Positions 8,780 to 64,000 of a stretch of 64,000 nt of DNA are shown piece by piece (position 1 is the first letter of the stretch; each line of letters begins with the position of its first letter). The notes beneath the pieces were generated by a model. It ran no database searches, had not been told where the DNA came from, and worked only from the letters and a program-made list of their open reading frames with translations. The position numbers were made by a program, and so were the translations under genes. Source of the stretch: Auanema rhodensis (Eukaryota > Animalia > Nematoda); contig OZ059899.1 of NCBI GenBank assembly GCA_964057225.1, forward strand, positions 16,988,001-17,052,000, written 5' to 3'.

Positions 8780-11700
8780 CTCAATACAAAATTTATTTAT
8801 GATTGTTTGAAAAAAGATGCATTAGTGTATGTTGAGTTTCCATGTACGCTCAACATTGCTTCCAAAAACAGTTTGAGAAAACTTTTTCCGAAAAATTTCA
8901 GAATCATTTCACAAAAAGTAGATGTTTTTAGATTCCTTTTTTTAAGGCGAAGACGATGGACAATGTTATTCAACGAAAAAATTAATTCTCCAGGGTGAAA
9001 ATCGAGGATATAAGTGTGAACTTATATCAGTTGATATCTCGGTGCATTTTTAAGCTAGCGCAAATCTGATAACACAGATCGACGCAGCTTACAAATCCGC
9101 ATCGAATACACTATACTACATTGAGAAACGCTCGATACAAAAATTAGTTATGATCGTTTGAAAAATGATGCATTAGTGTATGTTGAGTTTCCATGTACGC
9201 TCAACATTGCTTCCAAAAAAAATTTGAGAAAAATTTTTCCGAAAAATTTCAGAATCATTTCACAAAAAGTAGATGTTTTTAGATTCCTTTTTTCAAGGCA
9301 AAAACGATGGACAATGTTATTCAACGAAAAAATTAATTCTTCAGGGTGAAAATCGAGGATATAAGTGTGAACTTATATCAGTTGATATCTCGGTGCATTT
9401 TTAAGCTAGCGCAAATCTGATAACACAGATCGACGCAGCTTACAAATCCGCATCGAATGCACTATACTACGTTGAGAAACGCTCAATACAAAATTTATTT
9501 ATGATCGTTTGAAAAATGATGCATTAGTGTATGTTGAGTTTCCATGTACGCTCAACATTGCTTCCAAAAACAGTTTGAGAAAAATTTTTCCGAAAAATTT
9601 CAGAATCATTTCACAAAAAGTAGATGTTTTTAGATTCCTTTTTTCAAGGCAAAAACGATGGACAATGTTATTCAACGAAAAAATTAATTCTTCAGGGTGA
9701 AAATCGAGGATATAAGTGTGAACTTATATCAGTTGATATCTCGGTGCATTTTCAAGCTAGCGCAAATCTGATAACACAGATCGACGCAGCTTACAAATCC
9801 GCATCGAATGCACTATACTACATTGAGAAACGCTCAATACAAAATTTATTTATGATTGTTTGAAAAAAGATGCATTAGTGTATGTTGAGTTTCCATGTAC
9901 GCTCAACATTGCTTCCAAAAACATTTTGAGAAAAATTTTTCCGAAAAATTTCAGAATCATTTCACAAAAAGTAGATGTTTTTAGATTCCTTTTTTTAAGG
10001 CGAAGACGATGGACATTGTTATTCAACGAAAAAATTAATTCTTCAGGGTGAAAATCGAGGATATAAGTGTGAACTTATATCAGTTGATATCTCGGTGCAT
10101 TTTTAAGCTAGCGCAAATCTGATAACACAGATCGACGCAGCTTACAAATCCGCATCGAATGCACTATACTACATTGAGAAACGCTCGATACAAAAATTAG
10201 TTATGATCGTTTGAAAAATGATGCATTAGTGTATGTTGAGTTTCCATGTACGCTCAACATTGCTTCCAAAAACATTTTGAGAAAAATTTTTCCGAAAAAT
10301 TTCAAGATAATTTTACTAGTAGATGTTTTTAGATTCCTTTTTTCAAGGCAAAAACGATGGACAATGTTATTCAACGAAAAAATTAATTCTTCAGGGTGAA
10401 AATCGAGGATATAAGTGTGAACTTATATCAGTTGATATCTCGGTGCATTTTCAAGCTAGCGCAAATCTGATCACACAGATCGACGCAGCTTAAAAATCCG
10501 CATCGAATGCACTATACTACATTGAGAAACGCTCAATACAAAATTTATTTATGATTGTTTGAAAAAAGATGCATTAGTGTATGTTGAGTTTCCATGTACG
10601 CTCAACATTGCTTCCAAAAACATTTTGAGAAAAATTTTTCCGAAAAATTTCAGAATCATTTCACAAAAAGTAGATGTTTTAAGATTCCTTTTTTTAAGGC
10701 GAAGACGATGGACAATGTTATTCAACGAAAAAATTAATTCTTCAGGGTGAAAATCGAGGAAGTTCACACTTATATCAGTTGATATCTCGGTGCATTTTTA
10801 AGCTAGCGCAAATCTGATAACACAGATCGACGCAGCTTACAAATCCGCATCGAATGCACTATACTACATTGAGAAACGCTCAATACAAAATTTATTTATG
10901 ATTGTTTGAAAAATGATGCATTAGTGTATGTTGAGTTTCCATGTACACTCAACATTGCTTCCAAAAACATTTTGACAAAAATTTTTCCGAAAAATTTCGA
11001 AATAATTTCGCAAAAAGTAGATGTTTTTAGATTCCTTTTTTCAAGGCAAAGACGATGGACAATGTTATTCAACGAAAAAATTAATTCTTCAGGGTGAAAA
11101 TCGAGGATATAAGTGTGAACTTATATCAGTTGATATCTCGGTGCATTTTTAAGCTAGCGCAAACCTGATAACACAGATCGACACAACTTAAAAATCCGCA
11201 TCGAATGCGCTATACTACATTGAGAAACGCTTAATACAAAAATTAGCTATGATCGTTTGAAAAATGATGCATTAGTGTATGTTGAGTTTCCATGTACGCT
11301 CAACATTGCTTCCAAAAACATTTTGAGAAAAATTTTTCCGAAAAATATCAGAATCATTTCACAAAAAGTAGATGTTTTTAGATTCCTTTTTTTAAGGCGA
11401 AGACGATGGACAATGTTATTCAACGAAAAAATTAATTCTTCAGGGTGAAAATCGAGGAAGTTCACACTTATATCAGTTGATATCTCGGTGCATTTTTAAG
11501 CTAGCGCAAATCTGATAACACAGATCGACGCAGCTTACAAATCCGCATCGAATGCACTATACTACATTGAGAAACGCTCGATACAAAATTTATTTATGAT
11601 TGTTTGAAAAAAGATGCATTAGTGTATGTTGAGTTTCCATGTACGCTCAACATTGCTTCCAAAAACATTTTGAGAAAACTTTTTCCGAAAAATTTCAGAA

Positions 11701-14700
11701 TCATTTCACAAAAAGTAGATGTTTTTAGATTCCTTTTTTTAAGGCGAAGACGATGGACAATGTTATTCAACGAAAAAATTAATTCTCCAGGGTGAAAATC
11801 GAGGATATAAGTGTGAACTTATATCAGTTGATATCTCGGTGCATTTTTAAGCTAGCGCAAATCTGATAACACAGATCGACGCAGCTTACAAATCCGCATC
11901 GAATGCACTATACTACGTTGAGAAACGCTCAATACAAAATTTATTTATGATTGTTTGAAAAAAGATGCATTAGTGTATGTTGAGTTTCCATGTACGCTCA
12001 ACATTGCTTCCAAAAACATTTTGAGAAAACTTTTTCCGAAAAATTTCAGAATCATTTCACAAAAAGTAGATGTTTTTAGATTCCTTTTTTTAAGGCGAAG
12101 ACGATGGACAATGTTATTCAACGAAAAAATTAATTCTCCAGGGTGAAAATCGAGGATATAAGTGTGAACTTATATCAGTTGATATCTCGGTGCATTTTTA
12201 AGCTAGCGCAAATCTGATAACACAGATCGACGCAGCTTACGAATCCGCATCGAATGCACTATACTACATTGAGAAACGCTCAATACAAAATTTATTTATG
12301 ATTGTTTGAAAAAAGATGCATTAGTGTATGTTGAGTTTCCATGTACGCTCAACATTGCTTCCAAAAACATTTTGAGAAAACTTTTTCCGAAAAATTTCAG
12401 AATCATTTCACAAAAAGTAGATGTTTTTAGATTCCTTTTTTCAAGGCAAAAACGATGGACAATGTTATTCAACGAAAAAATTAATTCTTCAGGGTGAAAA
12501 TCGAGGATATAAGTGTGAACTTATATCAGTTGATATCTCGGTGCATTTTCAAGCTAGCGCAAATCTGATAACACAGATCGACGCAGCTTAAAAATCCGCA
12601 TCGAATGCACTATACTACATTGAGAAACGCTCAATACAAAAATTATTTATGATCGTTTGAAAAAAGATGCATTAGTGTATGTTGAGTTTCCATGTACGCT
12701 CAACATTGCTTCCAAAAACATTTTGATAAAAATTTTTCCGAAAAATTTCAAGATAATTTTACAAAAAGTAGATGTTTTTAGATTCCTTTTTTTAAGGCGA
12801 AGACGATGGACAATGTTATTCAACGAAAAAATTAATTCTTCAGGGTGAAAATCGAGGATATAAGTGTGAACTTATATCAGTTGATATCTCGGTGCATTTT
12901 TAAGCTAGCGCAAACCTGATAACACAGATCGACACAACTTAAAAATCCGCATCGAATGCGCTATACTACATTGAGAAACGCTTAATACAAAAATTAGCTA
13001 TGATCGTTTGAAAAATGATGCATTAGTGTATGTTGAGTTTCCATGTACGCTCAACATTGCTTCCAAAAACATTTTGAGAAAAATTTTTCCGAAAAATATC
13101 AGAATCATTTCACAAAAAGTAGATGTTTTTAGATTCCTTTTTTTAAGGCGAAGACGATGGACAATGTTATTCAACGAAAAAATTAATTCTTCAGGGTGAA
13201 AATCGAGGAAGTTCACACTTATATCAGTTGATATCTCGGTGCATTTTTAAGCTAGCGCAAATCTGATAACACAGATCGACGCAGCTTACAAATCCGCATC
13301 GAATGCACTATACTACATTGAGAAACGCTCGATACAAAATTTATTTATGATTGTTTGAAAAAAGATGCATTAGTGTATGTTGAGTTTCCATGTACGCTCA
13401 ACATTGCTTCCAAAAACATTTTGAGAAAAATTTTTCCGAAAAATTTCAGAATCATTTCACAAAAAGTAGATGTTTTTAGATTCCTTTTTTTAAGGCGAAG
13501 ACGATGGACAATGTTATTCAACGAAAAAATTAATTCTCCAGGGTGAAAATCGAGGATATAAGTGTGAACTTATATCAGTTGATATCTCGGTGCATTTTTA
13601 AGCTAGCGCAAATCTGATAACACAGATCGACGCAGCTTACAAATCCGCATCGAATGCACTATACTACGTTGAGAAACGCTCAATACAAAATTTATTTATG
13701 ATTGTTTGAAAAAAGATGCATTAGTGTATGTTGAGTTTCCATGTACGCTCAACATTGCTTCCAAAAACATTTTGAGAAAACTTTTTCCGAAAAATTTCAG
13801 AATCATTTCACAAAAAGTAGATGTTTTTAGATTCCTTTTTTTAAGGCGAAGACGATGGACAATGTTATTCAACGAAAAAATTAATTCTCCAGGGTGAAAA
13901 TCGAGGATATAAGTGTGAACTTATATCAGTTGATATCTCGGTGCATTTTTAAGCTAGCGCAAATCTGATAACACAGATCGACGCAGCTTACGAATCCGCA
14001 TCGAATGCACTATACTACATTGAGAAACGCTCAATACAAAATTTATTTATGATTGTTTGAAAAAAGATGCATTAGTGTATGTTGAGTTTCCATGTACGCT
14101 CAACATTGCTTCCAAAAACATTTTGAGAAAACTTTTTCCGAAAAATTTCAGAATCATTTCACAAAAAGTAGATGTTTTTAGATTCCTTTTTTCAAGGCAA
14201 AAACGATGGACAATGTTATTCAACGAAAAAATTAATTCTTCAGGGTGAAAATCGAGGATATAAGTGTGAACTTATATCAGTTGATATCTCGGTGCATTTT
14301 CAAGCTAGCGCAAATCTGATAACACAGATCGACGCAGCTTAAAAATCCGCATCGAATGCACTATACTACATTGAGAAACGCTCAATACAAAAATTATTTA
14401 TGATCGTTTGAAAAAAGATGCATTAGTGTATGTTGAGTTTCCATGTACGCTCAACATTGCTTCCAAAAACATTTTGATAAAAATTTTTCCGAAAAATTTC
14501 AAGATAATTTTACAAAAAGTAGATGTTTTTAGATTCCTTTTTTTAAGGCGAAGACGATGGACAATGTTATTCAACGAAAAAATTAATTCTTCAGGGTGAA
14601 AATCGAGGATATAAGTGTGAACTTATATCAGTTGATATCTCGGTGCATTTTTAAGCTAGCGCAAATCTGATAACACAGATCGACGCAGCTTACAAATCCG

Positions 14701-14780
14701 CATCGAATGCACTATACTACATTGAGAAACGCTCAATACAAAATTTATTTATGATTGTTTGAAAAAAGATGCATTAGTGT
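8780..14780. repeat. Diverged sub-family block of the same satellite (~17 monomers), containing a duplicated 5-mer (1751 bp)
   Basis: Diagnostic variants are concentrated here: TGTACGCTC, TTGAGAAAA, AGAATCATTTCAC, AGGCGAAGAC, GCTTACAAATCC, ATTTATTTATG. Units at 11257 and 13008 share private variants, and 1751 = 4x351+347. Confidence 0.93.
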
Positions 14781-15122
14781 ATGTTGAGTTTCCATGTACA
14801 CTCAACATTGCTTCCAAAAACATTTTGACAAAAATTTTTTCGAAAAATTTCAGAATATTTTAGCAAAAAATAGTTGTTTTTAGATTCCTTTTTTCAAGGC
14901 AAAGACGATGGACAATGTTATTCAACGAAAAAATTAATTCTGCAGGGTGAAAATCGAGGATATAAGTGTGAACTTATATCAGTTGATATCTCGGTGCATT
15001 TTTAAGCTAGCGCAAATCTGATAACACAGATCGACGCAGCTTAAAAATCCGCATCGAATGCACTATACTACATTGAGAAACGCTTAATACAAAAATTAGT
15101 TATGATCGTTTGAAAAATGATG

Positions 15123-15126
15123 CATT
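15123..15126. other. Target-site duplication CATT (left copy)
   Basis: The satellite normally reads GATG-CATT-AGTG. Here it reads GATGCATT|TGTAAT on the left and TAACA|CATTAGTG on the right. Confidence 0.95.
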
Positions 15127-15525
15127 TGTAATATCCTTATGTTGGATATTAATATTCCATGATTGACCCTTAGATTGATGTGTTGTAAAAGAAACAATAA
15201 GATTTGAGGAAGAGAGAAAGATTTATTATAAATAAAAAACATTTAAACAATAAACAAATAAAGATAAAGATAAGTCCGCCAACTGAAGATTCAGTTGAAT
15301 GGCAAGCTTATATAGCGAATGTTATCAGCATTTTCCACGAAAGGTTATAAGTTGTCAATGACAATTATAACTATCTCAGAAAATGCTGAGGCTGCAAAAT
15401 ATAACTGATAACATAATACACTAAGACAAGAAACTAGAATTATAAAATATAAAATATAAAACACAGAATAAAGAAATACATAAAAATTATAGAAAGAATA
15501 AAGTAAAGAATTATAAAGTATAACA
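15127..15525 (-). repeat. 3' LTR (399 bp)
   Basis: Direct repeat of 24106-24504 with no mismatch found by eye. Minus strand reads TGTTATA...ATTACA. Confidence 0.97.
15222..15227 (-). terminator. Candidate polyadenylation signal AATAAA in the 3' LTR
   Basis: The + strand TTTATT gives AATAAA on minus, about 60 nt downstream of the predicted initiator. The AT-rich context lowers specificity. Confidence 0.5.
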
Positions 15526-15582: not shown

Positions 15583-16641
15583 TCATAATGTTGCAGCAAG
15601 CTTTTTGATGAGATCCTTATGTACTTTTCTCATCTTTCCTTGACTCATTTCCAATTCCACATATGAGTTGTATACGCCTGTAATTTTGAACGGTTCATTA
15701 TAAGTGGGTCGCAATTTGCCGTGAACCGTCATATCCTTCAATAGTACCATTTCACCTATTTCAAATATACGTGATGCTATTCGGTTACTATTATTCAGCC
15801 GATTTTGTTGTTCAATTGATTTTAATTGAATTTTTTCTTGAATAGAATCCCAGGTATTTTTCCGGTTTTCATTTCTTTCCAATAATTCGTCATCTTCAGG
15901 AGAATTTAGATGAGGTTGTCCTGGTAATTGACGGTCCATAGGTAGTCGTGCGTCTCTTCCAAATAGAGCAATGTATGGGCTGATTCCGGTAGTTGTACTT
16001 GGGATTGTATTTAATGCGAATGTGATTTTAGGTAATTGTGAGGCCCATTGAGAGACACGGTTTTCAGCACAAGTGGATAAACATTCCTGGATGGTTCAAT
16101 GTAGTCGTTCCACTTGACCGTTTGTATTTTTGTGATATGGCAGAGAGAAGGTTTGTACAATTCCAAATTCGTTGCACATTAACTTGAATTCTTTAGATAT
16201 AAAATTTCCTCCATTGTCAGACACGATGCTCACTGGTGGTCCAAAAATGAAGACGAAATTCGTCAGGAACTTTCGGACTGTTTCTTCGGCATTCTGTGTG
16301 CGTAAAGGTATGCTCGTTATCCATTTCGAAAAAGCATCTTGAATAGAAAGAATATATTTAAATCCATTAGTGCTAGGGGAAAAAGGTCCTGTCACATCCA
16401 TATGAATCCTATCAAATGGTTTTTGTGGGGTAACAAACTTTCCATATGGTTCTCTCGTTGTATCATGTTGATTTATTTTCCTTTTTGCGCATGTCAGGCA
16501 TTGGCTGACGATCTCTTTCGCATCTTCCATCATATTTGTCCAATGGAATCTTCTTGATAATGCTGCATGTGTTCTTTTGATTCCTTGATGCGCTCCAATT
16601 CTTGCGTCTTCATGAAAAAGTTTCGCAAGTACTTGATTCAT
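15583..16641 (-). pseudogene. Integrase (HHCC zinc finger, DD(35)E core, GPY/F-like C-terminus), out of frame with pol and interrupted by an in-frame TGA at 16096-16098
   Basis: FHEDARIGAHQG...CLTC; HMDVTGPF; SDNGGNF followed by 35 residues then NGQVE. Past the stop the frame continues (TIQECL...WASQLPKITFALNT...TTGISPYIALFGR) into track ORF 15583-15939, which contains KLRPTYNEPFKI. Confidence 0.93.
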
Positions 16642-19600
16642 GTCTTTTGTTTTGGAATCATAATCCTTGGAGTAAGATATTGTTTGTTAGGTCGAGCATG
16701 CAAAACTCCGTCGATAACAATATATCTATCGCTATTAATCTGTTTAGGTTGTTCCGTTAACATATCAGCAATAGTTTCCTTAATCCATGGTGTTCCTTGT
16801 TGTAACTGAATTAGTTTGTCGGTATCCAGAGTTTCCACATTGGTTACATTTATGAGATAGTTGATGGTTTCTTGGATATCCGTTAAACTTGTTGTTGGCG
16901 TTGTCTTCTGTAGCTTCGGTTTAGGACCATCGTTAGCTTCGTTGCCTATGTATCTGGATAGTGCATCACATACACTATTCATACGTCCTGGACAGTACAT
17001 AATCACAATATCATATTCCTGGATCATTAACTGATATTTCGCTAGTCTTCCAATAAGATCTCTTCTACTCATTAGACTGGTTAGTGGTCGATGATCCGTT
17101 ATTAGCTTAGTTGACGTGCCTAAAACATATGTGCGAAATTGTTGTAATGCGTAGACGAGTGCCAAAGCTTCTAATTCGATAGGTGGGTATTCTCTTTCTG
17201 TAGGTGAGAGCTTCCTACTTGCGAACGCAACAGGGTGTAATCTATTTCCTGTATCTTGTAGTAAGACTGCTCCAATTGCAATAGTACTAGCGTCACTTTC
17301 AATAACAAAAGGTGCTCCATTTGTTGGTGGCTTCAGAACTGGTGCTGTGCATAGAGCTTTCTTGAGAGTCTCGAATGCTTTTTCACGTTCTTCCGTCCAT
17401 TCGAAATCTTGATCCTTGTGTGTGAGTTGATACAACGGTTCGGCTATTTTGGCGTAGTCTCTGATGAATCGCCGAAAATAATTTGTCATTCCAAGGAATG
17501 AACGAATAGCGGTGACCGTTTTAGGAGTTGAAAATTTCTTAACGGCTGTAATTTTTGATGGATCAGGTTGTATTCCATCGCGACCAATTATAAATCCAAG
17601 AAATTTAACTTGTGTAGCTGCAAATTTGCATTTACTTAGTTTTGCTTTCATTCCTAATCCTTGTAAAGCTTGTAACACTTCTTCTATATCCTCCAGATGT
17701 TGTTCAGCTGTGTTTGATATAATGAGTAGATCATCCAGATAAACAAAAAGTCGACATTTTACTTGATTTTGCAAATAGCGAACAGCTGATTGAAATGTAT
17801 GTGGAGCTCCACAGAGACCCATCGGCATTCTGCAATATTGATAAACTCCTGATGAGGTCACAAATGCAGTGAGGTGACGGTCTTCTTCACGTAAAGGAAT
17901 TTGAAAAAATCCCGATACGAGATCGATGTTTGTGAAGTATCGAGCTCCTGCAGTGCTGTCGATTATTTCTGGTATATGAGGAATAGAATAAGTCTGTTTC
18001 TGTGTGACACTATTGAGTGCACGGAAGTCCGTTACAAAGCGGAATGAGTTGTCTTTCTTCTTGACTAAGACGACTGGACTTGTAAAACTTGATGTTGATG
18101 TTTCTATTACTCCTTGGTCCAGCATTTCTTTTACTTGACGTTCAACTTCATCCTGTTTACCCAAAGGAACTCGATATGATCGAGATTTGGGCAGGTCCAT
18201 ATCGGTTCTCAAAGTGATTGAATGTTCTATTGGTCCTTTGAATAATCCAATGTTCCGATCTTCGTTAAAAAAAGCATTTTTGAATCTTCTCAACATAGTT
18301 TTGAGATTTTGACGTTGATTTTTAGATAGATCCGTTGATTCGAATTTTAAGTTATCGAAAGGATTCTTCTCAAAAATAGGCAATTTATCTGACCAATCAG
18401 CTTCTGGTGGAATATAGTCCGGTATATGTGGGATTCCAATTTCTTCTGGTATTTTTCCTTTTCCAATAATGGTGTTTCCTGTTAACTTCACCTCATAATT
18501 TGCTGTATTGATGGCGAATATTGTGAGTGGTGAAGTCTTGATAGCAGTAGGTGTGAATTGAATAGGTCCATTTCCACATCGTATAAGAGCGTATTGTTTT
18601 GGTTGTAGTTCTTTTGCCAATTGTAGACGAATCATAGCTTTAGTTCGGGGTGGAATAATAGATTCTCTAATGTTTATAATTGAAACGGTGTCTGAACTGA
18701 TGCGAAAGCTCTTCTGGTTAGCGGATAATAATGGTAGAAAATGGTTTCCAACTATTAATTGCTTGCGTAGAGCTTGTAGAGAAGTTGTTATTCCTTTTTC
18801 TTCTAATGCTTTCATGATGTCCAAACCAAGTAACATTTCAGTAGGACAATGTTTATCCTCAGAGATTAAAAATGTGTGTGAAAGATGGTATCCAGCAATA
18901 ACAATGTCCAACGTTATTGTACCCAGAAAGTTGAATATTGATCCATTTGCTGCGGTGGCAGAGATTTTAGTTGAGTTGAAATTCTCTTTTCCTAAATAGC
19001 GTACTGATGATTCCTTCAAATATGAAACAGATGCTCCGCTATCCCATAAAGCTACGAGTCCTCTGCCTTCTGCTTCAATTCTTATATATGGGAGTTCTCT
19101 TTTGTTCGTTGCACAGCATCCAACAAAAGGTATAATAATAGGAATAAAAGTGATGACAGTAGGAAAATATCTTCGAATAGTTTCGTCGTCGGCTGGAACA
19201 TCGATGTCAGCGTTGAGTAGTTCGTGTTGTTCAACTGCATTCACATTTAAGATAGGAACTTTCTCTTTGATATAAGATACAACAATAATGTATAATGCTG
19301 ATCCAAAGATTAATATAACTATCATAACACCTGCAGAGATAAACATTCTGTTGAGGGATCCAGCAAAGAAATCAACTCCTCGTTCCCATAGTGATGATGC
19401 AATATTTTGAGTAGAACTAAAAAGTTCGTTACTTTTTGTAAACCATTCTGATAAGCCTGGCAAATTCGCTTGATTCGTGATAACTCGTAGAAAATTTCTA
19501 TGAGGATTGGTAGCGAAAATGTGTCCATATGTTAAGCTTATTGTTCTAACTAAGTTTTCATCGGTGATATTTTCATAAAGATTTCTTTGTGAAAATCGAA

Positions 19601-22600
19601 TGGCTGCTAGATCGGGATACTGATCTGAACCAATGTTTAAAGCAGTTACGTTTGTAACTCCGTTGAGGGATTTCCATTCTCCATCCTCTTTCCATATATC
19701 ATTTTCTACTGTTTCACATGGAATTTCAGTTCCATATGCTTCCAAATCTGCTGAATCTTGAGGTGCAAAGTAGAGGCGGTCATCATCCGTGATGACGGGT
19801 GTTTCTAAATAACACTTATCTTTGTATGTGTGGTTGCGATAAATGTGAATTGGTTCTATTGGCTGACAGGTTGAAACCCGAATAAGATTCCGTCCAATTA
19901 TTCGAGCCACTACATCATCTCGTTGCATAATAGATCGGATAGCAATCGTAGGATTGATATTAAATATAGCTTGCCATGTCTTAATAAGTTCAAGTTGAGC
20001 ATGACATATGCTGTGATGTTGATGATGAAATTCTTCGACCAGTATGGTTCTCATTCGTTCAAATCCATAGTTGAGTTTGTTGATGGTAGTTAATGCATCT
20101 CGATGTCGAAGTATAGTATTCTGGTGATCAGTTAAGTGAGTGCCGAATAATTCTTGAGCTTTCTCTATGCTTCCAATCATGGGTTGCATTGATGTCATCC
20201 CTTGAATAGTACTAATTGTTTGTTTTGTAGTAGATGATGTATTTACAACAGGTTTTGAGGTAGCACTAAGAAATCGTGCAGTTGGCGTAGTTTTAGTGGT
20301 GATAGAGCGACTGAATACTCTTTTTGTAATCTCTTCAGGTGCTGGTTTTGAAAACCATGACATTAAATCAGTTAATTGTTTAGCGTCAATATTGATGTTA
20401 CGGCTGTAGAGATCTTCTTTATTCGAAGGCATCGGTATTCCAAAATTGGTTTCTCGGTTTCTGAGTGTCCAGTTATCCAACAGCTTTAATTTCATTTCAT
20501 ATACTTGATCTTTCACTTGTCGTTGCATAAAATGACTATGAAAGAACAGTTTCATTCGATAATATTCTATCAGTTGAGGTTGAGAATACTGATAGCGTAG
20601 TTCACGAAGTAATTCTTTTGCTTTATATACCACAGAACGTGGATCTCCAAATGTGAAGTTGAGATGGTTTTGATATACTGTGAATATCAAAAATTCGAGT
20701 GGTGGCACATATTCTGTTTCGGATAAGATTGCAGGTATTTGTATCAATTCCCATAATTTATCTCTTGCAACCGAAATTGTAGAATTGCCTGGTTTAACTA
20801 TTCTTTTTATATAATTGATAGGAAGTCGGTGTGCTAGTTGACCGATGACAAAACTAGGCTCCATTTGTTCGATCCACATTTTTGTAATCATCTTGCTTTC
20901 TTCTCCTCCTAGAGCATGTAGTAAGAGAATATTCGGATCGCGGAAGTCTTTTAAATTTGCCCAGTAATCTATAGTATGATCAGTAATGTTCAAAATATGG
21001 ACAGCTGACAGCAAAAATTGATGATATCGAGCAATAACAGTCAGGTTCTGATATTCGTTGCTAACTGATTGATAGTGATACCAGTTATGAATATATCGTA
21101 TGGTATTTCCGCCAGACGTGACAGTATATCTAGCAAACGGTAGATCCAATATTTGAATAGGAGTTAACTTATATTCCATTTCTGAGCGAAATGACGCAAT
21201 TAAGGATGAATTTGTTGAACGTTTATAGCGTTGGCGTGAAGGATCCATTTGATTATCCAAATAACTTGTTAGATCCAGTAGAGAATATGCATGCGGATAA
21301 TCAATAAACGAGACAAGAGTCTCAGTAGTGGATTCAAAAATTGGTGAAGAAAAACAAGATTGAGTTGTAGTAGATGCTGAGGTGTTGGCTAAGACAAGTG
21401 CTGTTTCTAGACTTGATATTAGCAGTGTTTGATCTCCAAGTATTCCATACAGAGGTCCAATACGTGTGTATTGGCATGGTGCTCGGGGTGTGGGTGGTTT
21501 CCAAACTACTGAACCATCTCCAAATGTACAGCTTCCCATTTGAGCTTTACAGCCTTCGGCGTTGACAATTAAGTCAGATACAATAGTATTGTCCTTTAAA
21601 TTTGTAATAACTCCTCGCTCCATCACAAATTGAGTTAAGTTGGCGCATTGAGTAAAACTGAAGAAACGTTCCGGTTCATATACTGGCTTAGGAGCTTCAT
21701 ATGTAAGTGGATTAGCGCTCAACAGTTTTTCATTTTTCCATTTCTTGTCTCGAGCAGCTATACGGCATTCTTCTACAGATACATATCCATTACCAATGAT
21801 GGTGTCATTGCTTTCTCGGAACCAAAATTGATCCGTTACACATAATCGATAGATGCGTGTATAACATTTCCACGCTTCCCATGTTACGACGGTTTGTTTA
21901 GGAATGAACAATTCAACGTTAACTTGATGAGCTTGTTGAATTGCTTTCCGTTGGCATCCTGTTATCTCTGGTGGTGTCATCAGAATTCCTCCTTTATGAG
22001 CTAAACATAGTTGATATGAAGCATTCACAGTGGGAAGCAGAAATGTGCAGATTATTGTTGTGAGCAGGAATGGTAATGCAATAGTATTTATATTGAATCG
22101 AGGTTTCCATCGTCGTTGATTGCCTTGATTCTCTCTTGGATAATTGTCGCGATTATTCCTGGCAAAGTTGTCTCGATTTTCTCTTTGATAATTGTTGCGA
22201 GGTTCTCTCGAATGGTGATTACTCTCCATTGAGTAGTTGTTTCCATAATTTTGTCGAGGGCCAGAGTTCCTGCTGAATTTATTTTTGAAATTCTTCCAAG
22301 GGTTTCTTGAATTGTTGCCATTGTTCCGTTCGAAATCTCGTGGCTGCTGATGGTTCCTTTGGTTCCTATTTTCCTTCATGGTGATCTTTTGAACTGCAGA
22401 GATCAACTCTTGCATAGTTGAGTTTTCTTCATGCTGTTTTTTATAGTTAGCACGAATTGCTTCTTCAAAACGTGCTGTCCTTTTTGCTTCCTCATAAGTC
22501 TTCGGATCTTTTCCTTGAACAATTATGCCTAAATCAGCGTTCAATCCATTTAAGAAAGCTGATCTTAATATGAGCTCTCTTTCTCGATCAGTTGGGCTCA

Positions 22601-23108
22601 TAATACTGGAAGCCATTTCTTCCAAGTATGAGGCAAACTGAGTAACAGTTTTCTCTCCTTGCGTCGAGCGTAGCAACTTCGCGATCGTGAAATTCCTTTC
22701 CGTGGCAGGGCAAAGTAACTCTGCCAATTGTGAAACAAGGTCTTTCCAAGGTCCTCGTTCACGAATTTCGGAAGGAATCGAGTTATATGCAGAGATCGCA
22801 GAATCATTCTGCTGAAGCAGCAGAGGAAGAAGAAAAATTCTTTCAATTACAGAAAGTCCCGCAGCATTCGCGAATCGGTTAAATATATCGATGTACGATC
22901 GAAAGCTTCGGCTACCATCGTATTTGGGGCAGTGTGGACTGCCTAGAACTTTTGTTAAGTTTTTGGTCAACTCTGGAGATGCCATTAAATTAGGCGTTTC
23001 CAGAGTTGAATCTCTGTTTGATTGCTCATGTGGTCTCATGTTGAGTAGGAGCTTCAGAGGTAGTTTTTCGCGCTGGGGAGTTTTTTCTTTTTTCGGTGTT
23101 ACAGCCAA
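16638..23108 (-). CDS. Gag-Env(gB-like)-PR-RT-RNase H polyprotein, 2156 aa as tracked. True start uncertain: first ATG at 23039, frame open back to 23285
   Basis: Single stop-free frame containing capsid-like Gag, a signal peptide, a Cys-rich glycoprotein, a TM helix, LWDSGAS, YLDD and RNase H motifs. Confidence 0.95.
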   Translation of the reverse strand: MAVTPKKEKTPQREKLPLKLLLNMRPHEQSNRDSTLETPNLMASPELTKNLTKVLGSPHCPKYDGSRSFRSYIDIFNRFANAAGLSVIERIFLLPLLLQQNDSAISAYNSIPSEIRERGPWKDLVSQLAELLCPATERNFTIAKLLRSTQGEKTVTQFASYLEEMASSIMSPTDRERELILRSAFLNGLNADLGIIVQGKDPKTYEEAKRTARFEEAIRANYKKQHEENSTMQELISAVQKITMKENRNQRNHQQPRDFERNNGNNSRNPWKNFKNKFSRNSGPRQNYGNNYSMESNHHSREPRNNYQRENRDNFARNNRDNYPRENQGNQRRWKPRFNINTIALPFLLTTIICTFLLPTVNASYQLCLAHKGGILMTPPEITGCQRKAIQQAHQVNVELFIPKQTVVTWEAWKCYTRIYRLCVTDQFWFRESNDTIIGNGYVSVEECRIAARDKKWKNEKLLSANPLTYEAPKPVYEPERFFSFTQCANLTQFVMERGVITNLKDNTIVSDLIVNAEGCKAQMGSCTFGDGSVVWKPPTPRAPCQYTRIGPLYGILGDQTLLISSLETALVLANTSASTTTQSCFSSPIFESTTETLVSFIDYPHAYSLLDLTSYLDNQMDPSRQRYKRSTNSSLIASFRSEMEYKLTPIQILDLPFARYTVTSGGNTIRYIHNWYHYQSVSNEYQNLTVIARYHQFLLSAVHILNITDHTIDYWANLKDFRDPNILLLHALGGEESKMITKMWIEQMEPSFVIGQLAHRLPINYIKRIVKPGNSTISVARDKLWELIQIPAILSETEYVPPLEFLIFTVYQNHLNFTFGDPRSVVYKAKELLRELRYQYSQPQLIEYYRMKLFFHSHFMQRQVKDQVYEMKLKLLDNWTLRNRETNFGIPMPSNKEDLYSRNINIDAKQLTDLMSWFSKPAPEEITKRVFSRSITTKTTPTARFLSATSKPVVNTSSTTKQTISTIQGMTSMQPMIGSIEKAQELFGTHLTDHQNTILRHRDALTTINKLNYGFERMRTILVEEFHHQHHSICHAQLELIKTWQAIFNINPTIAIRSIMQRDDVVARIIGRNLIRVSTCQPIEPIHIYRNHTYKDKCYLETPVITDDDRLYFAPQDSADLEAYGTEIPCETVENDIWKEDGEWKSLNGVTNVTALNIGSDQYPDLAAIRFSQRNLYENITDENLVRTISLTYGHIFATNPHRNFLRVITNQANLPGLSEWFTKSNELFSSTQNIASSLWERGVDFFAGSLNRMFISAGVMIVILIFGSALYIIVVSYIKEKVPILNVNAVEQHELLNADIDVPADDETIRRYFPTVITFIPIIIPFVGCCATNKRELPYIRIEAEGRGLVALWDSGASVSYLKESSVRYLGKENFNSTKISATAANGSIFNFLGTITLDIVIAGYHLSHTFLISEDKHCPTEMLLGLDIMKALEEKGITTSLQALRKQLIVGNHFLPLLSANQKSFRISSDTVSIINIRESIIPPRTKAMIRLQLAKELQPKQYALIRCGNGPIQFTPTAIKTSPLTIFAINTANYEVKLTGNTIIGKGKIPEEIGIPHIPDYIPPEADWSDKLPIFEKNPFDNLKFESTDLSKNQRQNLKTMLRRFKNAFFNEDRNIGLFKGPIEHSITLRTDMDLPKSRSYRVPLGKQDEVERQVKEMLDQGVIETSTSSFTSPVVLVKKKDNSFRFVTDFRALNSVTQKQTYSIPHIPEIIDSTAGARYFTNIDLVSGFFQIPLREEDRHLTAFVTSSGVYQYCRMPMGLCGAPHTFQSAVRYLQNQVKCRLFVYLDDLLIISNTAEQHLEDIEEVLQALQGLGMKAKLSKCKFAATQVKFLGFIIGRDGIQPDPSKITAVKKFSTPKTVTAIRSFLGMTNYFRRFIRDYAKIAEPLYQLTHKDQDFEWTEEREKAFETLKKALCTAPVLKPPTNGAPFVIESDASTIAIGAVLLQDTGNRLHPVAFASRKLSPTEREYPPIELEALALVYALQQFRTYVLGTSTKLITDHRPLTSLMSRRDLIGRLAKYQLMIQEYDIVIMYCPGRMNSVCDALSRYIGNEANDGPKPKLQKTTPTTSLTDIQETINYLINVTNVETLDTDKLIQLQQGTPWIKETIADMLTEQPKQINSDRYIVIDGVLHARPNKQYLTPRIMIPKQKT
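16950..17320 (-). other. RNase H domain (Ty3/Gypsy type); boundaries approximate
   Basis: FVIESDAS...GAVLLQ...VAFASRKL...ELEALA...TDHRPL...DALSR. Confidence 0.93.
17321..18290 (-). other. Reverse transcriptase domain plus connection; boundaries approximate
   Basis: SPVVLVKKKD..FRFVTDFRALN, IDLVSGFFQI, MPMGLCGAPHTFQ, YLDD (17730-17741), KFLGFII, IRSFLGMTNYFRRFI. Confidence 0.97.
18720..19100 (-). other. Retroviral-type aspartic protease domain; boundaries approximate
   Basis: ALWDSGASVSY (DSG at 19035-19043), AANG flap, MLLGLDIM. Confidence 0.93.
19269..22082 (-). other. Envelope-like type I membrane glycoprotein, herpesvirus-gB/chuvirus-G-like class III fusogen (aa ~343-1280 of the polyprotein)
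   Basis: Signal peptide 22020-22082; Cys-rich ectodomain with at least 12 N-x-S/T sequons; furin site RYKR at 21219-21230; gB-like core CHAQ..W..INPT..R..VVAR..G..VSTCQP at 19860-20006; CYLETPV; TM helix at 19269-19346. Confidence 0.85.
22083..23039 (-). other. Gag: capsid-like domain followed by an N/Q/R-rich tail, no CCHC knuckle
   Basis: PKYDG..SF..YI..F, LLRSTQGEKTVTQFA..LE.MA, and AFLNGL..PKTYEEA resemble the Gypsy/Arc-type capsid pattern; the position is first in the ORF. Confidence 0.85.
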
Positions 23109-24092
23109 GTGTGTTGGCGTTTTTTCGTCGTCCGATGGACTTAAATCGTTGTCAAACGAGTCGTCACTATCGGGAAAAGGAAATCGAGAAATACGATTTC
23201 TCTTGTCTCTTAATCTTTGAGAGGTACGGAAAGGCGTATCCGTATAATTATTCTTGGAGGTTGCCGTTTTGGAAAAGGAGGAAAGTCAGAACAATCTACA
23301 ATGTAAAATAGTGGAATAAGTTAGTAAACAAGATAAGAATATGAATAGTTAATAGTGAATAAATTAGTGAATAACGTGAAAAAAAAAATCAAAGAAAAAA
23401 AAAGATATATAATAATATGGGTTGAAGATTAATTAATTAATGAACTCATACAAAAACAAACTATAGAGAGGAAAAAAAAAAGTGAATATAATTAATTGTT
23501 AAGATGATGATAGGATATGATTATGTGACAATGTGATTCATAAATTAGAGAAGTGAGTATGGCGGACAAATCAAAATCTCAATTGTTACTGAATAACAAT
23601 GAATTACCAAACAAGGCATCTTTCAAATTCCAAAGTCTTTGTTTCAACTTGAATCAACAATCAAAAAATTATGAGAGGAAGGTTTAAATTCAAATATGAC
23701 AAATGATACAGCGGATGTTATTTTCTTACAGTGGCCATTCTGTTAGTACAAACTTGTAATCTTTATCAAAAATATCGCAAATTGACTTTATTAAGGTCCA
23801 ATTTTGCTTATATCAAACAGCTTTTCCATTTCCAAAAAATATATATTTTTCGCCACAATGAAAAATCAAAAGTACAACTGCGCAGAAACAAAAAGAAATC
23901 GAAAAGTTGGCCAATTCAGTATCTCACCCTTGCGCAAAATATCAACCCTGTTTATTAAAAAAATGAGTGAGACCCTTCGTACTGAATTGGAAAGAGAGGT
24001 GGTAGCCCAGGGAAATAGCTCAAAAAAATTCTCTTTAACTGAATGATAATTCATAATTTAATCGAGTTCAAAAAATCGTAAAAAGATTCTAA

Positions 24093-24105
24093 GGTGGAAC
24101 CTCCA
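24093..24105 (-). other. Primer-binding site TGGAGGTTCCACC, tRNA-Gln type
   Basis: Directly follows the 5' LTR. The + strand GGTGGAACCTCCA equals the 3' end of metazoan tRNA-Gln as I recall it (...CTCGGTGGAACCT+CCA). Confidence 0.85.
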
Positions 24106-24504
24106 TGTAATATCCTTATGTTGGATATTAATATTCCATGATTGACCCTTAGATTGATGTGTTGTAAAAGAAACAATAAGATTTGAGGAAGAGAGAAAGA
24201 TTTATTATAAATAAAAAACATTTAAACAATAAACAAATAAAGATAAAGATAAGTCCGCCAACTGAAGATTCAGTTGAATGGCAAGCTTATATAGCGAATG
24301 TTATCAGCATTTTCCACGAAAGGTTATAAGTTGTCAATGACAATTATAACTATCTCAGAAAATGCTGAGGCTGCAAAATATAACTGATAACATAATACAC
24401 TAAGACAAGAAACTAGAATTATAAAATATAAAATATAAAACACAGAATAAAGAAATACATAAAAATTATAGAAAGAATAAAGTAAAGAATTATAAAGTAT
24501 AACA
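24106..24504 (-). repeat. 5' LTR (399 bp)
   Basis: Direct repeat of 15127-15525; followed on the minus strand by the PBS. Confidence 0.97.
24260..24293 (-). promoter_or_regulatory. LTR core promoter: TATATAA plus initiator-like TCAGTT
   Basis: Minus strand reads GCTATATAAGCTTGCCATTCAACTGAATCTTCAGTT. The first T of the TATA (24293) lies 30 nt upstream of the A of TCAGTT (24263). Confidence 0.65.
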
Positions 24505-24508
24505 CATT
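24505..24508. other. Target-site duplication CATT (right copy)
   Basis: Matches 15123-15126; the satellite resumes in register. Confidence 0.95.
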
Positions 24509-27500
24509 AGTGTATGTTGAGTTTCCATGTACACTCAACATTGCTTCCAAAAACATTTTGACAAAAATTTTTTCGAAAAATTTCAAAATAATTTCGCAAA
24601 AAGTAAATGTTTTTAGATTCCTTTTTTTAAGGCAAAGACGATGGACAATGTTATTCAACGAAAAAATTAATTCTGCAGGGTGAAAATCGAGGATATAAGT
24701 GTGAACTTATATCAGTTGATATCTCGGTGCATTTTTAAGCTAGCGCAAATCTGATAACACAGATCGACGCAGCTTAAAAATCCGCATCGAATGCACTATA
24801 CTACATTGAGAAACGCTTAATACAAAAATTAGTTATGATCGTTTGAAAAAAGACGCATTAGTGTATGTTGAGTTTCCATGTACACTCAACATTGCTTCCA
24901 AAAACATTTTGACAAAAATTTTTTCGAAAAATTTCAAAATAATTTCGCAAAAAGTAAATGTTTTTAGATTCCTTTTTTTAAGGCAAAGACGATGGACAAT
25001 GTTATTCAACGAAAAAATTAATTCTGCAGGGTGAAAATCGAGGATATAAGTGTGAACTTATATCAGTTGATATCTCGGTGCATTTTTAAGCTAGCGCAAA
25101 TCTGATAACACAGATCGACGCAGCTTAAAAATCCGCATCGAATGCACTATACTACATTGAGAAACGCTTAATACAAAAATTAGTTATGATCGTTTGAAAA
25201 ATGATGCATTAGTGTTTGTTGAGTTTCCATGTACACTCAACATTGCTTCCAAAAACATTTTGACAAAAATTTTTTCGAAAAATTTCAAAATAATTTCGCA
25301 AAAAGTAAATGTTTTTAGATTCCTTTTTTTAAGGCAAAGACGATGGACAATGTTATTCAACGAAAAAATTAATTCTGCAGGGTGAAAATCGAGGATATAA
25401 GTGTGAACATATATCAGTTGATATCTCGGTGAATTTTTAAGCTAGCGCAAATCTGATAACACAGATCGACGCAGCTTAAAAGTCCGCATCGAATGCACTA
25501 TACAACATTGAGAAACGCTTAATACAAAAATTAGTTATGATCGTTTGAAAAAAGACGCATTAGTGTATGTTGAGTTTCCATGTACACTCAACATTGCTTC
25601 CAAAAACATTTTGACAAAAATTTTTTCGAAAAATTTCAAAATAATTTCGCAAAAAGTAAATGTTTTTAGATTCCTTTTTTTAAGGCAAAGACGATGGACA
25701 ATGTTATTCAACGAAAAAATTAATTCTGCAGGGTGAAAATCGAGGATATAAGTGTGAACTTATATCAGTTGATATCTCGGTGCATTTTTAAGCTAGCGCA
25801 AATCTGATAACACAGATCGACGCAGCTTAAAAATCCGCATCGAATGCACTATATTACATTGAGAAACGCTCAATACAAAAATTAGTTATGATTGTTTGAA
25901 AAATGATGCATTAGTGTATGTTGAGTTTCCATGTACACTCAACATTGCTTCCAAAAACATTTTGACAAAAATTTTCCCGAAAAATTTCAAGATAATTTCA
26001 CAAAAAGTAGATGTTTTTAGATTCATTTTTTCAAGGCAAAGATGATGGACAATGTTATTCAACGAAAAAATTAATTCTTCAGGGTGAAAATCGAGGAAGT
26101 TCACACTTATATCAGTTGATATCTCGGTGAATTTTTAAGCTAGCGCAAATCTGATAACACAGATCGACGCAGCTTAAAAATCCGCATCGAATGCACTATA
26201 CAACATTGAGAAACGCTTAATACAAAAGTTAGTTATGATCGTTTGGAAAATGATGCATTAGTGTATGTTGAGTTTCCATGTACACTCAACATTGCTTCCA
26301 AAAACATTTTGACAAAAATTTTCCCGAAAAATTTCAAGATAATTTCACAAAAAGTAGATGTTTTTAGATTCCTTTTTTTCAAGGCAAAGACGATGGACAA
26401 TGTTATTCAACGAAAAAATTAATTCTTCAGGGTGACAATCGAGGATATAAGTGTGAACTTATATCAGTTGATATCTCGGTGAATTTTTGAGCTAGCGCAA
26501 ATCTGATAACACAGATCGACGCAGCTTAAAAATCCACATCGAATGCACTATACAACATTGAGAAACGCTTAATACAAAAATTAGTTATGATCGTTTGAAA
26601 AAAGACGCATTAGTGTATGTTGATTTTCCATGTACACTCAACATTGCTTCCAAAAACATTTTGACAAAAATTTTTTCGAAAAATTTCAAAATAATTTCGC
26701 AAAAAGTAAATGTTTTTAGATTCCTTTTTTTAAGGCAAAGACGATCGACAATGTTATTCAACGAAAAAATTAATTCTGCAGGGTGAAAATCGAGGATATA
26801 AGTGTGAACTTATATCAGTTGATATCTCGGTGCATTTTTAAGCTAGCGCAAATCTGATAACACAGATCGACGCAGCTTAAAAATCCGCATCGAATGCACT
26901 ATACTACATTGAGAAACGCCCAATACAAAAATTAGTTATGATCGTTTGAAAAATGATGCATTAGTGTATGTTGAGTTTCCATGTACACTCAACATTGCTT
27001 CCAAAAACATTTTGACAAAAATTTTTTCGAAAAATTTCAAAATAATTTCGCAAAAAGTAAATGTTTTTAGATTCCTTTTTTTAAGGCAAAGACGATGGAC
27101 AATGTTATTCAACGAAAAAATTAATTCTGCAGGGTGAAAATCGAGGATATAAGTGTGAACTTATATCAGTTGATATCTCGGTGCATTTTTAAGCTAGCGC
27201 AAATCTGATAACACAGATCGACGAAGCTTAAAAATCCACATCGAATGCACTATACAACATTGAGAAACGCTTAATACAAAAATTAGTTATGATCGTTTGA
27301 AAAAAGACGCATTAGTGTATGTTGATTTTCCATGTACACTCAACATTGCTTCCAAAAACATTTTGACAAAAATTTTTTCGAAAAATTTCAAAATAATTTC
27401 GCAAAAAGTAAATGTTTTTAGATTCCTTTTTTTAAGGCAAAGACGATGGACAATGTTATTCAACGAAAAAATTAATTCTGCAGGGTGAAAATCGAGGATA

Positions 27501-30500
27501 TAAGTGTGAACTTATATCAGTTGATATCTCGGTGCATTTTTAAGCTAGCGCAAATCTGATAACACAGATCGACGCAGCTTAAAAATCCGCATCGAATGCA
27601 CTATACTACATTGAGAAACGCCCAATACAAAAATTAGTTATGATCGTTTGAAAAATGATGCATTAGTGTATGTTGAGTTTCCATGTACACTCAACATTGC
27701 TTCCAAAAACATTTTGACAAAAATTTTTTCGAAAAATTTCAAAATAATTTCGCAAAAAGTAAATGTTTTTAGATTCCTTTTTTTAAGGCAAAGACGATGG
27801 ACAATGTTATTCAACGAAAAAATTAATTCTGCAGGGTGAAAATCGAGGATATAAGTGTGAACTTATATCAGTTGATATCTCGGTGCATTTTTAAGCTAGC
27901 GCAAATCTGATAACACAGATCGACGCAGCTTAAAAATCCGCATCGAATGCACTATACTACATTGAGAAACGCTTAATACAAAAATTAGTTATGATCGTTT
28001 GAAAAATGATGCATTAGTGTATGTTGAGTTTCCATGTACACTCAACATTGCTTCCAAAAACATTTTGACAAAAATTTTTTCGAAAAATTTCAAAATAATT
28101 TCGCAAAAAGTAAATGTTTTTAGATTCCTTTTTTTAAGGCAAAGACGATGGACAATGTTATTCAACGAAAAAATTAATTCTGCAGGGTGAAAATCGAGGA
28201 TATAAGTGTGAACATATATCAGTTGATATCTCGGTGAATTTTTAAGCTAGCGCAAATCTGATAACACAGATCGACGCAGCTTAAAAGTCCGCATCGAATG
28301 CACTATACAACATTGAGAAACGCTTAATACAAAAATTAGTTATGATCGTTTGAAAAAAGACGCATTAGTGTATGTTGAGTTTCCATGTACACTCAACATT
28401 GCTTCCAAAAACATTTTGACAAAAATTTTTTCGAAAAATTTCAAAATAATTTCGCAAAAAGTAAATGTTTTTAGATTCATTTTTTTAAGGCAAAGACGAT
28501 GGACAATGTTATTCAACGAAAAAATTAATTCTGCAGGGTGAAAATCGAGGATATAAGTGTGAACTTATATCAGTTGATATCTCGGTGCATTTTTAAGCTA
28601 GCGCAAATCTGATAACACAGATCGACGCAGCTTAAAAATCCGCATCGAATGCACTATACTACATTGAAAAACGCTTAATACAAAAATTAGTTATGATCGT
28701 TTGAAAAATGATGCATTAGTGTATGTTGAGTTTCCATGTACACTCAACATTGCTTCCAAAAACATTTTTACAAAAATTTTTCCGAAAAATTTCAAAATAA
28801 TTTCGCAAAAAGTAGATGTTTTTAGATTCCTTTTTTTAAGGCAAAGACGATGGACAATGTTATTCAACGAAAAAATTAATTCTGCAGGGTGAAAATCGAG
28901 GATATAAGTGTGAACTTATATCAGTTGATATCTCGGTGCATTTTTAAGCTAGCGCAAATCTGATAACACAGATCGACGCAGCTTAAAAATCCGCATCGAA
29001 TGCACTATACAACATTGAGAAACGCTTAATACAAAAATTAGTTATGATTGTTTGAAAAATGATGCATTAGTGTATGTTGAGTTTCCATGTACACTCAACA
29101 TTGCTTCCAAAAACATTTTGACAAAAATTTTTTCGAAAAATTTCAGAATATTTTCGCAAAAAGTAAATGTTTTTAGATTCCTTTTTTTAAGGCAAAGACG
29201 ATGGACAATGTTATTCAACGAAAAAATTAATTCTGCAGGGTGAAAATCGAGGATATAAGTGTGAACTTATATCAGTTGATATCTCGGTGCATTTTTAAGC
29301 TAGCGCAAATCTGATAACACAGATCGACGCAGCTTAAAAATCCGCATCGAATGCACTATACTACATTGAGAAACGCTTAATACAAAAATTAGTTATGATC
29401 GTTTGAAAAATGATGCATTAGTGTATGTTGAGTTTCCATGTACACTCAACATTGCTTCCAAAAACATTTTGACAAAAATTTTTTCGAAAAATTTCAGAAT
29501 ATTTTAGCAAAAAATAGTTGTTTTTAGATTCCTTTTTTCAAGGCAAAGACGATGGACAATGTTATTCAACGAAAAAATTAATTCTGCAGGGTGAAAATCG
29601 AGGATATAAGTGTGAACTTATATCAGTTGATATCTCGGTGAATTTTTAAGTTAGCGCAAATCTGATAAAACAGATCGACGCAGCTTAAAAATCCGCATTG
29701 AATGCACTATACAACATTGAGAAACGCTTAATACAAAAATTAGTTATGATCGTTTGAAAAAAGACGCATTAGTGTATGTTGAGTTTCCATGTACACTCAA
29801 CATTGCTTCCAAAAACATTTTGACAAAAATTTTTTCGAAAAATTTCAGAATATTTTAGCAAAAAATAGTTGTTTTTAGATTCCTTTTTTCAAGGCAAAGA
29901 CGATGGACAATGTTATTCAACGAAAAAATTAATTCTGCAGGGTGAAAATCGAGGATATAAGTGTGAACATATATCAGTTGATATCTCGGTGAATTTTTAA
30001 GCTAGCGCAAATCTGATAACACAGATCGACGCAGCTTAAAAATCCGCATCGAATGCACTATACAACATTGAGAAACGCTTAATACAAAAATTAGTTATGA
30101 TCGTTTGAAAAAAGACGCATTAGTGTATGTTGAGTTTCCATGTACACTCAACATTGCTTCCAAAAACATTTTGACAAAAATTTTTTCGAAAAATTTCAAA
30201 AAAATTTCGCAAAAAGTAAATGTTTTTAGATTCCTTTTTTTAAGGCAAAGACGATGGACAATGTTATTCAACGAAAAAATTAATTCTGCAGGGTGAAAAT
30301 CGAGGATATAAGTGTGAACTTATATCAGTTGATATCTCGGTGCATTTTTAAGCTAGCGCAAATCTGATAACACAGATCGACGCAGCTTAAAAATCCGCAT
30401 CGAATGCACTATACTACATTGAGAAACGCTTGATACAAAAATTAGTTATGATCGTTTGAAAAATGATGCATTAGTGTATGTTGAGTTTCCATGTACACTC

Positions 30501-63500: not shown

Positions 63501-64000
63501 TTTAGATTCCTTTTTTTAAGGCAAAGACGATGGACAATGTTATTCAACGAAAAAATTAATTCTGCAGGGTGAAAATCGAGGATATAAGTGTGAACTTATA
63601 TCAGTTGATATCTCGGTGCATTTTTAAGCTAGCGCAAATCTGATAACACAGATCGACGCAGCTTAAAAATCCGCATCGAATGCACTATACTACATTGAGA
63701 AACGCTTAATACAAAAATTAGTTATGATCGTTTGAAAAATGATGCATTAGTGTATGTTGAGTTTCCATGTACACTCAACATTGCTTCCAAAAACATTTTG
63801 ACAAAAATTTTTTCGAAAAATTTCAAAATAATTTCGCAAAAAGTAAATGTTTTTAGATTCCTTTTTTTAAGGCAAAGACGATGGACAATGTTATTCAACG
63901 AAAAAATTAATTCTGCAGGGTGAAAATCGAGGATATAAGTGTGAACTTATATCAGTTGATATCTCGGTGCATTTTTAAGCTAGCGCAAATCTGATAACAC
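24505..64000. repeat. Continuation of the 351/347-bp satellite array (~113 copies), same orientation; runs off the window end
   Basis: Same monomer and periodicity, with local higher-order duplications. Confidence 0.99.

Follow-up and report, generated by a model that had tools for sequence, protein, structure and literature searches.

A 64,000-nucleotide stretch of the nematode Auanema rhodensis (contig OZ059899.1, positions 16,988,001 to 17,052,000), here called the window, consists of a 351-bp satellite with a single interruption, a 9,378-bp Ty3/gypsy element on the minus strand (24504-15127). This element is very probably a recent, integrase-broken copy in which one reading frame joins Gag, a fusogen resembling glycoprotein B (gB) and Pol, and the product is likely a membrane-threaded polyprotein that would be cut into the parts of enveloped particles. 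It is a new family of an already described kind of nematode element, with the order GAG-ENV-POL and a gB-type env. The architecture of such elements is thus known and their mechanism is not, and a young family offers testable handles on it. These include predicted cleavage sites flanking env, a topology with one membrane pass that is conserved in relatives, and a hypervariable env linker (61-557 amino acids, aa) where a receptor-binding part could sit. If fusion or particle formation proves true, the result would be a class III-enveloped retroelement in nematodes and a simple model of a gB that works without partners.

One reading frame from Gag to RNase H

The long frame is the longest open reading frame (ORF) of the window, and the only other two ORFs of at least 150 aa are pieces of its integrase. 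It is open for 82 codons before its first methionine. Residue numbers below run from stop to stop, so that aa 364-1280 in the numbering of the initial annotation of this DNA are aa 423-1339 here. The frame and its parts, which include the aspartyl protease (PR), reverse transcriptase (RT), RNase H (RH) and a predicted transmembrane (TM) helix, are as follows.

16638..23285, minus strand: Gag-Env-PR-RT-RH in one frame of 2,215 codons without a stop, with its first methionine at 23039 (aa 83)
22086..23039, minus strand: Gag, a capsid-like domain and a basic N/R/Q-rich tail; a CCHC knuckle was not seen in its sequence
22020..22082, minus strand: predicted internal signal peptide (aa 402-422; hydrophobic stretch aa 402-420), with a likely protease-site motif upstream (aa 397-402)
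21246..22019, minus strand: N-terminal half of Env, predicted gB domains I-II, by fold match and conserved cysteines; predicted local distance difference test (pLDDT) mostly >85
21819-21827 (FWF) and 21654-21665 (FFSF), minus strand: candidate fusion loops within the Env N-terminal half
21219..21230, minus strand: furin-type motif RYKR (aa 686-689)
20316..21218, minus strand: lineage-specific insert of ~300 aa, then an S/T-rich stretch (aa 991-1040)
19662..20135, minus strand: C-terminal core of Env, predicted gB domain III helix and domain IV, by PF24664, PF00606 and the model
19278..19334, minus strand: predicted TM stop-transfer helix (aa 1318-1336), then a second likely protease-site motif (aa 1346-1351)
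18807..19091, minus strand: aspartyl protease (Pfam aa 1403-1492; DSG at aa 1415)
17586..18065, minus strand: reverse transcriptase (RVT_1 aa 1741-1900, E 8e-35; YLDD at aa 1849)
17013..17399, minus strand: RNase H (Pfam aa 1963-2091)

With the integrase (IN) behind the frame, Pfam places the Pol domains in the order PR-RT-RH-IN, as in Ty3/gypsy. One contig of sequencing run X1 (19130-22250) bridges the junctions from Gag through env to the protease with three other letters and no gap, and at least half of the element's words are found in nine sequencing runs from three studies, one of which runs may be the source of the window.

Much of this had been claimed in the initial annotation, made from the sequence alone, and stands. 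A gypsy-type element is confirmed by the Pol domains, the long terminal repeats (LTRs), the tRNA primer site and the target duplication, and the stop-free frame reading Gag, signal peptide, glycoprotein, TM helix, PR, RT and RH agrees with the Pfam order over its 2,215 codons. The named motifs are all present (FWF and FFSF where they had been placed, ICHAQLEL from aa 1093 and CYLETPV at aa 1158). The term endogenous retrovirus is better replaced, as this is a retrotransposon of the Metaviridae type and not an endogenous member of the Retroviridae. The LTRs, the primer site, the target duplication and the breaks in the integrase are additions to that annotation.

A predicted class III ectodomain

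The ectodomain is predicted to have a class III, gB-like fold over domains I-IV. In Pfam, Monjiviricetes_fusion (PF24664) matches aa 1051-1208 above the cut-off (E 8.5e-12). A structure model built from an alignment of 101 env homologues and one row for the window is confident in the N-terminal half and in the C-terminal core (core pLDDT >85), while the middle is poorly modelled. The PDB matches listed by Foldseek for this model are all herpes gB (best E 1.4e-10). The top match in VIA-align is prefusion gB of Epstein-Barr virus (Z 14.4, root-mean-square deviation 5.9, 379 residues, model range 1-809), and it covers both halves. Matches in a library of predicted viral structures are to gB and to the G proteins of mono/chu-like viruses, and an Atlas cluster search with env gave class III clusters at 0.89, which is a lead only. 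A search of the PDB by env sequence gave no matches. The class III, gB-like ectodomain that had been proposed by eye is therefore borne out by Pfam, Foldseek and VIA-align on the predicted model, and its two aromatic candidate fusion loops fall at predicted loop tips. FWF (F487-W488) lies at the turn of a long hairpin, and FFSF closes the second loop just ahead of a long return strand, positions expected of fusion loops. The column of F487 has a hydrophobic residue in 63 of 67 rows, and that of F541 in 65 of 69. Thirteen of the 14 ectodomain cysteines are conserved, each in 72-100% of the rows that cover it, and the ectodomain has 13 sequons.

The linker between the two halves has 450 aa in this element; in a set of 100 proteins its median length is 92 (range 61-557, omitting one value that is an overlap artefact), and an R-x-K/R-R motif lies within the linker in 44 of the 100. 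The ~300-aa insert aligns only with P0002 (labelled Auanema sp.) among the matches listed, and its model has a pLDDT of 38. A word-based homologue search with the insert gave no match, a weak blank, as phmmer later found relatives of env. A reading of the insert as the C-terminal domain of saccharopine dehydrogenase, suggested by Atlas clusters at 0.85-0.86 with few shared features, was rejected as chance. Five other proteins (P0037, P0105, P0026, P0016 and P0124) have env linkers of 400-560 aa that are unrelated to this insert, and the linker of P0026 has seven cysteines. Domains seem to have been gained repeatedly at the furin linker.

Relatives share the layout

With aa 423-1340 as query, phmmer found 223 matches at E <=0.001 among 1.84 billion representatives, and the best 150 of these were used. 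Word-based searches with env had found no relative, and these are weak blanks given the phmmer outcome. Gypsy RT, RH or IN was detected in 32 of the best 150 of the 223 env homologues, and in all 32 it follows env in the same protein. In the remaining 118 no gypsy Pol was detected, and these are mostly fragments. In seven of the best 150 of the 223, a single chain runs from Gag through Env to IN. Pfam annotation of 20 long homologues agrees with the gypsy layout, and three of the 20 are BEL/Pao proteins with the same type of env at the C-terminus. The labels of named relatives are Caenorhabditis, Auanema, Diploscapter, Acrobeloides and Aphelenchus. Such labels, together with putative introns of 43-46 nt, are in keeping with a nematode host, likely a rhabditid. 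The gag-env-pol layout is a trait of the clade, and the expectation that the env segment would be found in relatives, and would not be a misassembly, is borne out by these 32 proteins and by the X1 contig across the junctions.

In a tree of RT and RNase H (21 rows with a near-full match, all of them env-selected relatives, with no named reference elements), the window groups with P0153 and P0008 (support 100/99), which are 63% and 55% identical to it. In a tree of env (29 rows; P0135 and P0106, each without one half, were omitted), it groups with P0153, P0008, P0002, P0004, P0005 and P0014 (support 99.8/100). The partners of the window in the two trees are labelled Caenorhabditis and Auanema, and deeper branches are poorly supported in both. 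The best RT identity is 63%; the env core is 45% identical to an Auanema-labelled protein and at most 27% identical to others. Since the same relatives appear in both trees, env was inherited together with pol in this subclade. The initial annotation had this lineage capturing the fusogen, a view that does not fit with separate env and RT trees that group the window with the same Caenorhabditis-labelled relatives.

Several relatives depart from the common layout in other ways. BEL/Pao polyproteins with a gB-like env at the C-terminus include P0031, P0065 and P0073 by Pfam, and P0076, P0139 and P0141 by position; in the env tree, five of these six cluster together with support. Protease-like domains occur in tandem, two or three at a time, in P0007, P0010 and P0037, and by eye in P0013. 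In P0066 an RRM domain separates Gag from Env.

Comparison with known elements

The initial annotation knew of no description of this gene order. In the available text of Chary & Hayashi (eLife 2026, PMC13524379), however, elements of nematodes, bryozoans and flatworms have gB-type env only, in the order GAG-ENV-POL, and Sacco et al. 2022 are credited there with the flipped order, env before pol, in nematode metaviruses. Their table has 36 nematode elements. The likeness to the present element extends to a gB-type env that is preceded by a signal peptide and followed by a TM helix. Two of their elements, Clat_errantivirus_4 and Ctro_errantivirus_1 (Nematoda_Chromadorea), have a 12-nt tRNA-Gln primer site identical to that of this element, with LTRs of 170-470 bp and a similar total length, and eight of the ten tRNA-Gln rows in the portion of the table available are Caenorhabditis. 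In Clat_errantivirus_4 eight cysteines of domains I-II match by eye, and its row closely resembles P0014, a member of the env clade. The element table, as available, names no Auanema element, and two Auanema assemblies gave ENV-POL matches there. The RT and env of the window are nearest to nematode-labelled proteins of this layout; these are database proteins and not Chary & Hayashi's own sequences.

Whether the parts are fused in the published elements is less plain. The words 'single ORF', 'fused' and 'polyprotein' do not occur in the available text of PMC13524379 and its preprint, whose figures may show a fusion. A literature search for reports on gag-env-pro-pol, nematode endogenous retroviruses (NERVs) or a single ORF found nothing beyond PMC13524379 and its citation of Sacco, and it is through that citation, in the part of the article available, that the likeness of the NERVs in having env before pol is known. 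Published support for an in-frame fusion would come from the NERVs (Sacco et al. 2022, J Gen Virol 103:1739). Their gag-env-pro-pol ORF is reportedly uninterrupted, their env is said to resemble the glycoproteins of RNA viruses, and they are said to carry extra ORFs for a small protein and a helicase. The present element differs in the latter, as the window has no further ORF of at least 150 aa.

Other known systems share single features with the element. Atlas virus and the nematode belpaoviruses, in the available text of Merchant et al. (PMC9094657), likewise combine a single stop-free polyprotein that includes Env with identical LTRs and a nematode host, but Atlas virus is of the BEL/Pao type, has Env last (Gag-Pol-Env) and carries a class II, phlebovirus-like fusogen. 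From BEL/Pao elements with env the window differs further in that Pfam finds no Peptidase_A17, DUF1759 or DUF5641, all present in P0031, P0065 and P0073, and in that env does not follow the integrase. Herpesvirus gB and mono/chu-like virus G resemble the ectodomain in the predicted domain I-IV fold and in a furin motif in the linker between domains II and III; identity is 7-16%, however, and here the protein is embedded in a retroelement, has the ~300-aa insert and has no gene for a partner like gH/gL. The Drosophila errantiviruses gypsy and ZAM also join a Ty3/gypsy pol to an env gene, and provide a model for spread from soma to germline. Their env is of the F type and stands in a separate ORF after the integrase, whereas here env is class III and no ORF lies past the integrase.

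Topology, processing and alternative readings

Of the 75 proteins that include the env start, 71 have a signal-like stretch ahead of env, and in 36 of 40 the region from env to the protease contains exactly one hydrophobic helix (the window counted in both). As predicted from sequence, the signal and the single TM helix give the topology that such a polyprotein needs, with Gag in the cytosol, Env in the lumen and Pol in the cytosol. In the likely mechanism, Gag would be translated in the cytosol and the internal signal would then direct the chain into the endoplasmic reticulum (ER), where signal peptidase would cut that signal. The ectodomain would be glycosylated at its sequons and cut by furin at RYKR, and the TM helix would halt transfer, so that PR-RT-RH-IN remain cytosolic. 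Gag and Pol would next be released by the element's own protease, which would cut at the pair of I/V-N-A/T-type motifs on either side of Env. Such an ER-threaded polyprotein would resemble the precursors of flaviviruses. Its Gag, Env and Pol would arise in a 1:1:1 ratio and be tethered initially to one membrane, which would favour budding there. With Env, particles would be able to pass from one cell to another, the most likely route being that from soma to germline shown for Drosophila gypsy, and this copy would need integrase from a sister copy. Enveloped infectious particles are plausible.

Several observations weigh against this reading. Two of the Pfam matches, Retrotrans_gag at aa 169-249 (E 6e-4) and Glycoprotein_B (PF00606) at aa 1068-1148 (E 1.4e-4, overlapping the PF24664 match), are below the cut-off. 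In the env model 388 of 879 residues have a pLDDT below 50, and the whole-model TM-scores are low (0.17-0.25) because these residues are poorly modelled. Around FWF and FFSF the alignment is uneven, and the columns beside F487 and F541 are gappy. No clear polypurine tract is present before the 3' LTR, where a purine-rich stretch is interrupted. A further hydrophobic stretch ahead of PR (aa 1374-1392) would, as a TM helix, place Pol in the lumen; it was rejected as a true TM helix, such a stretch being found in only three of 40 proteins. The evidence for cutting is also partly circular, as the motif [IVLA][NH][ANSTVM][IVLM] was picked after the sequences had been inspected. Its enrichment itself speaks for the reading: the motif occurs at the Gag end in 19 of 33 proteins (shuffle mean 2.1, maximum 6; ectodomain control 1 of 33) and in the linker before PR in 22 of 38 (shuffle mean 4.7, maximum 12; control 6 of 38). 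We take the I/V-N-A-type motifs flanking env to be likely gypsy protease sites.

Other explanations of the same frame have been weighed. The glycoprotein could be a fresh, one-off capture, or the locus an assembly chimera, as the failure of word-based env searches to find relatives might suggest; this is scarcely credible in the face of 223 phmmer matches, the same order in 32 of the 32 informative relatives among the best 150 of them, congruent env and RT subclades, and contigs of independent runs that bridge the junctions. Also very unlikely is a reading in which the long frame is not translated as a whole, and splicing or separate starts give unequal amounts of Gag, Env and Pol. In its favour, a 1:1:1 ratio of Gag, Env and Pol would be unusual among LTR elements, the leader of 1,066 nt has six upstream ATGs, and the host splices short introns from putative RNA of this element, though on the antisense strand. 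No splice joint on the sense strand is listed in the contigs, whose coverage is thin, and the signal, the TM helix and the spacing of the motifs are conserved as a polyprotein requires.

Env might instead be kept without infectious particles, as a membrane anchor, as an assembly scaffold or for budding and fusion at internal compartments, with transposition confined to one cell. The mechanism of transmission or cell entry of gB-type elements is left unexplained in the available text of PMC13524379, and a derivative that lacks env is present in all five DNA runs compared. This explanation is nevertheless unlikely, as relatives at 20-30% identity keep the class III fold, both loop positions, the furin motif and 13 cysteines, which a mere anchor would not need. 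Improbable, too, is the fullest extension of the enveloped-particle reading, in which the element is an actively spreading, infectious retrovirus-like agent of nematodes with a flavivirus-like ER-threaded polyprotein, the ~300-aa insert is a captured receptor-binding domain of new fold that does the job of gH/gL, and the gag-only derivative supplies extra capsid.

Integrase breaks and history of this copy

It is the damaged integrase of this copy that ends the long frame at 16638. A frame change lies near 16639, and an in-frame stop at 16096-16098 divides what follows.

16096..16686, minus strand: integrase zinc finger and core (Integrase_H2C2 and rve in Pfam), out of the long frame and ending in a stop
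15583..16095, minus strand: remaining integrase behind the stop, assigned by position and frame; no integrase match in Pfam

At both breaks the window differs from the contigs of each of the four DNA runs compared, and the breaks are therefore private to this copy or to its assembly. The inclusion rule given in the available text of Chary & Hayashi is full-length RT and IN in continuous ORFs, and this copy falls outside it. Within the long frame 23 differences from the contigs (tallied from 40 of 215 rows) divide into replacement and silent changes as 7 and 1 in pol, 5 and 7 in gag, and 1 and 2 in env. This hints that the pol of this copy has drifted without selection despite identical LTRs. 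A defective template that was copied with the help of a sister copy would explain both the drifted pol and the identical LTRs.

A gag-only deletion derivative also exists. In its joint (15914-22167) the last part of gag meets the last part of the integrase, with 6,252 bases skipped and six bases of microhomology, and the derivative is present in five of five DNA runs compared and in the putative RNA run X12. The depth of the contigs is greater over gag than over env.

None of the listed runs that contain the element is registered as RNA. Runs X12-X14 are putatively RNA, with thin cover and none over env, and have no bearing on expression. Contigs of X12 and X13, which belong to one study, have antisense (plus-strand) GT..AG gaps at 15989-16031 (43 nt) and 16151-16196 (46 nt); a third gap, at 15854-15899 (46 nt), is suggested by a loose contig end. 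One antisense contig exits at a donor-like site to sequence outside the window, and the affected region is 15854-16307 on the plus strand. DNA contigs are continuous through the gap sites, with no skip. An antisense protein gene over the integrase was rejected, the longest open stretch of the exon chain being 94 codons. On the simplest reading, a host transcript would include a copy of the element in antisense, and cryptic splicing would act on that copy.

Element ends and surrounding satellite

The ends of the element and its surroundings are as follows.

24505..24508, minus strand: target-site duplication, left copy, 4 bp
24106..24504, minus strand: 5' LTR, 399 bp, TG...CA ends, no differences from the 3' LTR
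24094..24105, minus strand: primer-binding site directly behind the 5' LTR, 12 nt, complementary to the 3' end of tRNA-Gln according to the available part of the Chary & Hayashi table
15127..15525, minus strand: 3' LTR, 399 bp, identical to the 5' LTR
15123..15126, minus strand: target-site duplication, right copy, 4 bp
1..15126: satellite array of 351-bp units on the left side of the element, which interrupts one unit
24505..64000: satellite array of 351-bp units on the right side of the element

Empty satellite sites occur in four of four DNA runs, and because their joints skip 9,382 bases (9,378 and 4) the 4-bp target duplication is confirmed. The leader ahead of the first in-frame methionine spans 23040-24105 on the minus strand. 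The satellite comprises 156 copies of the 351-bp unit and covers ~97% of the window outside the one gap. The satellite might be a target of the family, or might be germline-limited DNA, which is known in some rhabditids. The satellite is AT-rich and extremely abundant in the DNA runs, and its units are 94-100% alike, some of them being 347 bp long.

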